Origin: a virus
Taxonomy: Duplodnaviria > Heunggongvirae > Uroviricota > Caudoviricetes
IMG/VR virus record: IMGVR_UViG_2698536369_000028
Location: 1 to 15,140 of that record
Length of the DNA stretch: 15,140 bases
Reading direction: 5' to 3' (one strand)
The notes under the pieces were generated by a model. The model saw only the letters and a list, made by a program, of their open reading frames with translations. It had not been told where the DNA came from and did not search any database. Made by a program: the position numbers and the translations under genes. Of this stretch, positions 8,383 through 8,508 are shown in pieces. How positions within the stretch are numbered: position 1 is the stretch's first letter; every line of letters begins with the position of its first letter.

Positions 8383-8508
8383 TTGCGGGTTATGCGGGTT
8401 ATCCTGTGCATAAGTTAATTAACTGCATGATTAAAAAGGAAATAAATAACCCGCACGTAACCCGCAAAACAGCAGTTATAACCCGCAAATGTGCGATTGT
8501 AACCCGCA
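8383..8508. repeat. Iteron array with AT-rich spacer: candidate origin of replication
   Basis: Seen: TAACCCGCA direct repeats starting at 8447, 8458, 8479 and 8500 (spacing 11, 21, 21 bp); two tandem inverted copies TTGCGGGTTATGCGGGTTA at 8383-8401; AT-rich stretch 8411-8446 containing the palindrome GTTAATTAAC. Confidence 0.6.

Follow-up and report, generated by a model that had tools for sequence, protein, structure and literature searches.

The window analyzed here is the whole 15,140-nucleotide stretch at positions 1 to 15,140 of the IMG/VR virus record IMGVR_UViG_2698536369_000028 (Caudoviricetes). It matches Escherichia coli chromosomes, and its near-identical full island (locus L001) is found in strain FDAARGOS_1298. 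The gene content of the window is that of an E. coli island built on the backbone published for Gram-negative phage-inducible chromosomal islands (PICIs), namely, int, alpA, an Icd-like gene, DUF4222, rep, ssb, proQ, and perC. Our subject is a cluster of short repeats (iterons) in the 210-bp gap between the stop codon of rep (8360) and the start of ssb (8571), which an initial annotation had read as an iteron-type replication origin. The features of this replication region are as follows.

6234-8360, plus strand: rep, encoding a 708-amino-acid (aa) DUF927 protein (Pfam DUF927)
8031-8357, plus strand: coding region of the Rep C-terminal domain (residues ~600 to 708), the putative iteron-recognition domain
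8040-8554, no strand: candidate specificity cassette of ~515 bp, made up of the coding region of the C-terminal domain and the whole candidate origin, swapped as a unit in Escherichia albertii locus L007
8384-8392 and 8393-8401, minus strand: left iteron pair, two abutting copies of TAACCCGCA oriented away from the right set
8402-8446, no strand: AT-rich spacer of 45 bp with a GC content of 26.7%, the putative melting and helicase-loading site
8405-8413, minus strand: putative DnaA box TTATGCACA at the left spacer edge, the sole exact match to the consensus TTATNCACA in the 15-kb window
8447-8455, 8458-8466, 8479-8487, and 8500-8508, plus strand: right iteron set, four direct copies of TAACCCGCA on one helix face
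8571-8996, plus strand: ssb (Pfam SSB, E = 1.1e-14), directly downstream of the candidate origin

Six exact copies of the 9-mer TAACCCGCA lie within 8384-8508, four on the plus strand and two on the minus strand, the first of them beginning 24 nt past the rep stop codon. The initial annotation had described four direct repeats spaced by 11, 21, and 21 bp, and exact plus-strand copies do start at 8447, 8458, 8479, and 8500, with these very start-to-start distances. The two inverted copies that it had placed upstream are present as well, but they are contiguous with a 9-bp period, so that the helical-phase spacing claimed for the array holds for the direct copies only. An AT-rich segment between the two sets was likewise recovered: the GC content of the spacer compares with 48.1% for the window, which places it within the lowest 2.4% of all window 45-mers, and its core (8410-8446) has a GC content of 18.9%.

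That short repeats are generally frequent in intergenic DNA is the only argument for supposing that the cluster arose by chance or slippage and has no function. The maximum copy number of any 9-mer within 130 bp or less, both strands counted, was 6 in the window, whereas in 1,000 dinucleotide-preserving shuffles it was 2 in 954, 3 in 44, and 4 in 2 and was never higher. When up to one mismatch was allowed, TAACCCGCA had 8 matches in the window against 2.99 ± 1.58 expected, and none of 200 shuffles reached 8. The geometry of the array is, moreover, conserved across genera while its sequence changes in step with the protein (see below), and a functionless cluster is barely credible.

A seventh exact copy of TAACCCGCA is located at 12737-12745 (plus strand), inside an open reading frame (ORF) for an 843-aa protein and 4.2 kb from the array. 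We considered it as a second cis site like that of phage P4 and rejected it: it is isolated, having no neighbor with two or fewer mismatches, and the chance expectation is about 0.12 exact copies. The minus-strand ORF at 8097-8411, which overlaps the left iterons, has no family match and is antisense to rep, and it was treated as spurious. An Rfam scan of the whole window returned no family.

A promoter and terminator scan of 8200-8700 found no terminator and one weak promoter-like site on the minus strand; no plus-strand promoter-like site and no terminator were detected between rep and ssb. These results bear on the idea that the array is mainly an operator, through which Rep or another regulator would control transcription from rep into ssb-proQ, or would limit copy number by handcuffing. 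Plasmid iterons commonly double as autoregulatory and handcuffing sites, and in relatives a third repeat cluster abuts a conserved promoter-like motif containing TATATA, upstream of a ribosome-binding site. That third cluster is absent from the window, however, and opposed sets separated by a strongly AT-rich spacer whose length is fixed (54 or 64 bp from left to right set) suit melting and helicase loading over repression. In the PICI EcCICFT073, deletion of the region syntenic to the array significantly lowered plasmid maintenance (PMC6092414), and a regulatory role could in any case coexist with origin function. A mainly regulatory array is thus improbable compared with a replication origin.

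Conservation of the array in DUF927 loci

The comparison set comprised 17 related DUF927 loci from at least 10 genera, consisting of 3 other E. coli islands, 12 other loci, and the PICIs EcCIEDL933 and EcCIMP1. The 12 other loci come from E. albertii, Winslowiella, Cedecea, Pantoea, Rahnella, Citrobacter, Pectobacterium, Tenebrionibacter, Apirhabdus, and an Enterobacteriaceae metagenome bin, and their Rep proteins are 57 to 79% identical to the window Rep. Spacings were tabulated for 15 relatives, and EcCIEDL933 and EcCIMP1 were examined separately. The initial annotation had proposed to look for relatives that carry the same gene and lack the repeats; this check was run, and the repeats were present in all 17 loci. 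In each, the array begins 22 to 29 nt past the rep stop codon and retains the two contiguous inverted copies, followed by ~50 bp of AT-rich sequence and then by the direct copies.

The exact pattern -(9)-, 54 or 64 bp, +(11)+(21)+(21)+, where the signs denote the strand of each copy, is kept in 14 of the 17 loci, counting L005 (21/21/21); the variants are L014 (with an extra copy), L015, and EcCIMP1. The 11/21/21 spacing is identical in EcCIEDL933 and in 12 of the 15 tabulated relatives. The left-to-right distance is 54 or 64 bp, values that differ by one helical turn, in EcCIEDL933 and in 14 of the 15 tabulated relatives (52 bp in L015). The 9-mer itself has seven versions (TAACCCGCA, TAACCCAC, TGAACCACG, TGAACCAAC, TGAACCGRN, TGGGACAAG, and TGGGAYAAG). 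Such a fixed geometry combined with a varying sequence is the signature of a protein-binding array.

The DnaA-box-like site is kept in place in L002 and L004 (both TTATACACA) and in L005 (TTATCCACA), with differences at the N position only. A one-mismatch version occurs in L017 and none in the other iteron classes, the site being kept only within the TAACCC class. This pattern gives a weak hint that TTATGCACA at the spacer edge may be a site for host DnaA.

Downstream of the core cluster, most relatives have two accessory clusters. Cluster 2 has one direct copy and, after 22 to 24 bp, two inverted copies with a spacing of 21 bp, and cluster 3 has three copies in tandem, at a 9-bp period, with a conserved TTTGTTTATATATAC directly after them; the ribosome-binding site of the next gene lies just downstream (accessory clusters at L002 3440-3610, L004 3440-3610, L008-L018 and L023 36350-36520). 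They could represent an enhancer like the cis replication region (crr) of P4 or a Rep-controlled promoter. Both clusters are found in 12 of the 17 relatives and partially in L010, and they are absent from the window, L007, L005, and EcCIMP1.

Because the window lacks the two clusters, the array might be a real Rep-binding site within a crippled or remnant origin, in an island that is passively inherited and does not replicate autonomously. In line with this, neither the window nor the full island L001 was found to have a capsid, terS, or DUF1441 gene, and the downstream PerC-family gene is frameshifted in L001. On the other hand, with two or more iterons flanking an AT-rich center on either side, the core cluster by itself fits the definition of a SaPI (Staphylococcus aureus pathogenicity island) origin, none of its six copies contains a mismatch, and rep is full length and keeps its Walker motifs intact. 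The same minimal form is also seen in E. albertii, where it occurs independently and with another class of iterons, and the excised and transferred EcCIMP1 has just three inverted and three direct copies. Finally, 47 complete E. coli genomes from a range of hosts carry the 701-bp region at 95% identity or higher. For these reasons we consider a remnant unlikely, although not negligible, and favor a working origin.

The DUF927 initiator and its C-terminal domain

DUF927 is the sole Pfam family in Rep (E = 1.7e-46). A phmmer search against PDB sequences matched 8tch_A (E = 2.1e-14) and 5dgk_A (E = 9e-4), and the sole significant fold matches by Foldseek were the same two structures, 8tch (the SaPIbov1 initiator with helicase activity; E = 8e-7) and 5dgk (Cch of the staphylococcal cassette chromosome mec [SCCmec]; E = 6e-6). 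The full-length AlphaFold model had a predicted local distance difference test (pLDDT) score of 54.8 and was used only to confirm the top fold matches. The Walker A residues G355-K356-T357 and the Walker B residues D399-E400 are invariant across 39 homologues. By these matches, the predicted protein is a DUF927 initiator-helicase homologous to SaPIbov1 Rep and SCCmec Cch, that is, the Rep/Cch-type AAA+ helicase that serves as the cognate initiator of SaPI and PICI origins. No Rep_3-type gene was found in the window, and the initiator is not of the RepA/Rep_3/pi/TrfA winged-helix family.

The initial annotation had placed the array between a primase/helicase gene and ssb. The position and the helicase assignment stand, whereas the primase label is unsupported: Rep has no Pfam family other than DUF927, and its N-terminal 128 residues, a confidently modelled alpha/beta domain without any family match, matched no primase family. 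Sister DUF927 proteins hold Zn_Ribbon_Prim and Toprim_3 domains in its place, and the EcCIMP1 protein is annotated as “TOPRIM and DUF927.” We considered whether the window-type domain is a degenerate Toprim and dropped the idea when BLASTP against a Toprim-bearing sister gave no significant alignment there. The N-terminal module of DUF927 Reps is interchangeable, with a ~130-residue alpha/beta domain in the window type, a Zn-ribbon and Toprim N terminus in Reps of 824 to 949 aa (L012, L013, L015, L016, and L025 at 19422-22178), and another N terminus in L011.

At the other end of the protein, the C-terminal domain has a weak match to Pfam HTH_56, the helix-turn-helix family of Cch (E = 0.023), which is the sole direct hint of a winged helix. 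Its AlphaFold model, of low confidence (pLDDT 55), has a helix-hairpin-helix-helix-hairpin arrangement.

The Rep protein of E. albertii L007 is 94 to 100% identical to the window Rep over residues 151 to 550 and 34 to 40% identical over residues 601 to 708, and its iterons differ, L007 carrying GGGACAAG in identical geometry. At the DNA level, identity to the window is mostly 85 to 97% up to ~8030, falls to 22 to 52% over 8040-8554, and returns to 80 to 97% from 8555. The drop is limited to this interval, and therefore the C-terminal domain and the intergenic origin appear to have been exchanged as one cassette.

The same correspondence extends across the 14 intact loci, in which C-terminal domain classes map one-to-one onto iteron classes. 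Iteron distance is correlated with C-terminal divergence (Spearman coefficient = 0.78) and much less with helicase-core divergence (0.24); the partial Mantel r was 0.76, a value reached in none of 5,000 permutations. The C-terminal domain is the only Rep segment whose divergence tracks iteron class. EcCIMP1 provided a prospective check: its C-terminal domain was assigned to the TGAACCAAC class, and TGAACCAAC is the iteron that its origin contains. Iteron specificity is thus matched to the Rep C-terminal domain in the form of co-variation rather than binding, and we infer that the C-terminal ~110 residues of Rep read the iterons.

This co-variation also bears on the possibility that the array is a packaging (pac or cos) or recombination site, read by a terminase small subunit or a recombinase. 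Such proteins often recognize clustered short repeats, and the array lies where the replication module gives way to the late module. However, the DUF927 iterons stay unchanged across late modules with an HK97-type capsid, a lambda-type capsid with TerS, or DUF1441 and where there is none, which argues against a packaging site. Variation in the iterons goes with variation in the Rep C-terminal domain, and the two are exchanged together. The integrase gene lies at the end of the island, 7 kb from the array, and EcCICFT073 has its published cos sites apart from its ori. We regard a packaging or recombination site as very improbable and a site for the initiator as the better account of the array.

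Comparison with known origins and a possible course of replication

The closest parallel to the window is provided by the origins of SaPIbov1, SaPI1, and SaPI5. A SaPI origin lies immediately 3' of rep and has 6 to 12 iterons around a central AT-rich region, with at least two per side and the sides opposed in orientation (PMC9371898), which is the arrangement found here. SaPI Rep is a self-loading AAA+ helicase (8tch) homologous to the window Rep; its winged-helix C-terminal domain binds the iterons, and it binds and melts the origin without ATP (PMC9371898). Specificity likewise lies in a C-terminal domain that matches the iterons, in the window by co-variation. The window differs in its Gram-negative host, in iterons of 9 bp instead of penta- or hexanucleotides, in an asymmetric (2+4) arrangement with strict 11/21/21 phasing, in the extra ~130-residue N-terminal alpha/beta domain of its Rep, and in a possible DnaA box.

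Among Gram-negative PICIs, the experimentally mapped origin is that of EcCICFT073, whose pri-ori region replicates a plasmid, both parts being needed (Fillol-Salom et al. 2018, PMC6092414). EcCICFT073 shares with the window int, alpA, the Icd-like gene, DUF4222, an initiator, ori, ssb, and perC, the position of the origin, and its plan of two contiguous copies, AT-rich DNA, and more copies; the 2+4 exact copies around the AT-rich spacer of the window agree with the wording of an origin in that study. Its initiator, in contrast, is an SF3/P4-alpha-like protein with D5_N, DUF5906, and Pox_D5 domains, and its iteron is CTGTCTACC, which is shared by EcCIIHE3034 (“DNA primase family” by annotation). 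The iteron CTGTTCACC occurs in L003 (D5_N/DUF5906/Pox_D5) and EcCIRM13514 (“DNA primase family” by annotation), and AAAGTGAGG occurs in EcCI042, which has an AAA_25 RepA-family helicase. PICIs of other initiator families thus carry different iterons in the same position as the window array, and the position of ssb is conserved among PICIs of all three initiator families.

Two PICIs with DUF927 initiators are transferred by helper phages, and their origins are not mapped in the papers cited here. EcCIEDL933, which replicates on helper-phage induction (bioRxiv 10.1101/2022.09.08.507074), has a Rep 82% identical to that of the window and TAACCCGCA iterons in identical core-cluster geometry. It differs from the window in having 11 exact copies in three clusters and a full capsid/terminase module. 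EcCIMP1, excised and transferred by phage Kapi1 (PMC11773190), has a Toprim-DUF927 Rep with a matching TGAACCAAC origin; unlike the window Rep, its Rep has a real Toprim domain.

Phage P4 is likewise a satellite with an iteron region (crr) immediately 3' of its initiator gene, and the C-terminal domain of its initiator, the alpha primase-helicase, is thought to read the repeats, as we propose for the window Rep. The P4 type-1 repeat TGTTCACC, found in crr directly 3' of the alpha gene, is contained in the P4-type iteron CTGTTCACC of L003 and EcCIRM13514. The window repeat is TAACCCGCA, which sets the array apart from the P4 type. Moreover, alpha belongs to a different protein family (its C-terminal part being D5_N/Pox_D5), and P4 needs a separate ori and crr ~4.5 kb apart, whereas the window has a single array.

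The origins of iteron plasmids (pSC101, F, P1, R6K, and RK2) resemble the window in having initiator sites beside an AT-rich unwinding element and possibly a DnaA box. Their initiators, however, are WH1-WH2 Reps (with two winged-helix domains) that recruit host DnaB, whereas the predicted initiator of the window is itself a helicase, and their iterons are 17 to 22 bp long in one direct array rather than 9 bp in opposed sets. The 21-bp period of the window holds for three copies only, and the spacers between them are not conserved.

Overall, the layout shared by all 17 DUF927 loci, the co-variation with the C-terminal domain, and the published SaPI/PICI layout bear out the iteron-type origin proposed in the initial annotation. 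We consider it very likely that the array serves a Gram-negative PICI as its origin of vegetative replication and belongs to the SaPI/PICI Rep-iteron type, in a DUF927 branch. That the window copy can replicate autonomously after excision would follow by analogy with experiments on related elements. Its competence, and binding, melting, and self-loading by Rep, would likewise follow from homology and co-variation.

Several points weigh against this interpretation. The Foldseek match to 8tch and 5dgk leans on sequence-level homology, the model being poor, and a Foldseek search of PDB with the model of the C-terminal domain gave no significant match, so that a winged-helix fold is not demonstrated. 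Common descent links many of the loci compared; the argument therefore rests on the cross-genus set, as conservation in E. coli alone would be weak evidence. The window array is the core cluster alone, which might make for a weaker or a defective origin. The mapped EcCICFT073 origin belongs to another initiator family than that of the window, and the searchable literature holds no experiment on any DUF927-type PICI origin or on the window sequence. No description in words of a DUF927-type origin or its iteron was found in the literature searched, although the iterons in Fig. 2a of PMC6092414, available as an image only, may include one; a full-text search for the iteron sequence returned only unrelated primer and sequence matches.

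If the array is an origin, replication might proceed as follows. Induction of the island by a helper phage would lead to expression of the int-alpA-rep operon, and the DUF927 Rep would bind the 9-bp iterons through its C-terminal ~110-residue domain. Rep would then assemble on both sides of the spacer, on the two left and the four right iterons, which are opposed in orientation, with the right set presented on one helical face. The 45-bp AT-rich spacer would melt, and Rep would load itself as a hexameric AAA+ helicase, probably with one ring per side. The SSB encoded by the island would coat the unwound strands. Priming and elongation would be left to host primase and polymerase, since the window Rep is without a recognizable primase module.

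We also advance, tentatively, a broader interpretation that as a whole is less likely than not to hold. The C-terminal domain of DUF927 Reps and the origin might form a ~0.5-kb swappable specificity cassette in satellites of the Enterobacterales, in which a rigid scaffold, -(9)-, 54/64 bp, +(11)+(21)+(21)+, would support at least seven mutually exclusive replicon specificities, produced by diversification of the 9-mer and of the domain that reads it. Such diversification would presumably avoid cross-talk between co-resident satellites. The window would then be a naturally minimal version, with only the core cluster, no primase module, and a conserved DnaA-box consensus at the edge of the unwinding region. 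Because of these three traits it might require DnaA and DnaG from the host, in contrast to SaPI Reps, which are self-sufficient.

The origin core was found in 252 of 5,426 complete E. coli genomes (~5%) and was unannotated in every one. The finding thus locates the probable origin, and the domain likely to read its DNA, of a replicon class that includes EcCIEDL933, the model capsid-forming PICI. The cassette swaps and iteron variants would amount to a natural specificity code between C-terminal domain classes and iterons, which could guide work on satellite incompatibility, the engineering of orthogonal satellite replicons, and origin annotation. The kind of origin is known, although it is seen here with an initiator family that has been studied less, and our understanding of how such origins work is unchanged.

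The island around the array

The backbone genes of the window are all on the plus strand. Beside rep and ssb, they are as follows.

1-1269, plus strand: tyrosine integrase gene (int), at the island end and 7 kb from the array
2408-2626, plus strand: AlpA
2701-4718, plus strand: Rha/AntA, T5orf172, and Bro-N proteins
Within 4558-5682, plus strand: Icd-like peptide
5935-6237, plus strand: DUF4222 gene (Pfam DUF4222, E = 3.8e-18), its end overlapping the rep start
9033-9530, plus strand: ProQ/FinO-family RNA chaperone, directly after ssb, as in EcCIRM13514 and L005
About 9936-10161 (from L001), plus strand: PerC-family gene, annotated as frameshifted in L001

The full island L001 adjoins a tRNA-Gly gene and spans roughly 18 to 19 kb up to yqeG. 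A unidirectional int-alpA-rep-ori backbone with genes exclusive to PICIs, as is characteristic of Gram-negative PICIs, is present in the window, and the gene order is similar in EcCICFT073, EcCIRM13514, EcCIIHE3034, EcCI042, EcCIEDL933, and EcCIMP1.

In most of the E. coli PICIs checked, a DUF4222 gene lies directly upstream of the initiator gene, whether this encodes a DUF927, D5_N/Pox_D5, or AAA_25 protein; the exceptions are EcCIRM13514, in which none is annotated adjacent to it, and EcCIMP1, in which it lies further upstream. Because it occurs upstream of three unrelated initiator families, the DUF4222 gene is, on this comparative evidence, a conserved partner in the replication module.

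The annotation of L001 includes no tail or lysis module, but three large genes encode homologues of epsilon15-type virion proteins. Two large ORFs lie downstream in the window, at 10596-13127 (843 aa) and 13127-15055 (642 aa here and 686 aa in L001), and the large genes in L001, at 17029-22159, include a 918-aa gene. Pfam, NCBIfam, and PADLOC returned nothing for these large ORFs, which were identified by PHROGs and tblastn. The 843-aa protein matches phrog_992 (“head protein”; E = 4e-296) and is 78 to 79% identical to the putative lytic transglycosylase/head protein of epsilon15 and ~66% identical to proteins of phiV10-like phages, and the 918-aa protein of L001 matches phrog_684 (“virion structural protein”; E = 1.5e-295). 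These matches suggest that the island, like EcCIMP1, has its own internal-virion or ejection-type proteins, and they point to an epsilon15/phiV10-like helper.

The most AT-rich stretch of the window, at 2127-2255 between a 216-aa ORF and alpA, has 45-mers with GC contents as low as 16 to 18% and is probably the control region of alpA. The 374-aa ORF listed at 4558-5682 is probably not a single gene, to judge from its matches: only its last ~45 residues match the Icd-like family, and RefSeq annotates the same stretch as a 68-aa Icd-like gene and two small minus-strand genes, one of them YlcI/YnfO. The T5orf172/MUG113-domain protein encoded at 3392-4168 matches the PADLOC candidate defense family PDC-S57 (E = 9e-8).

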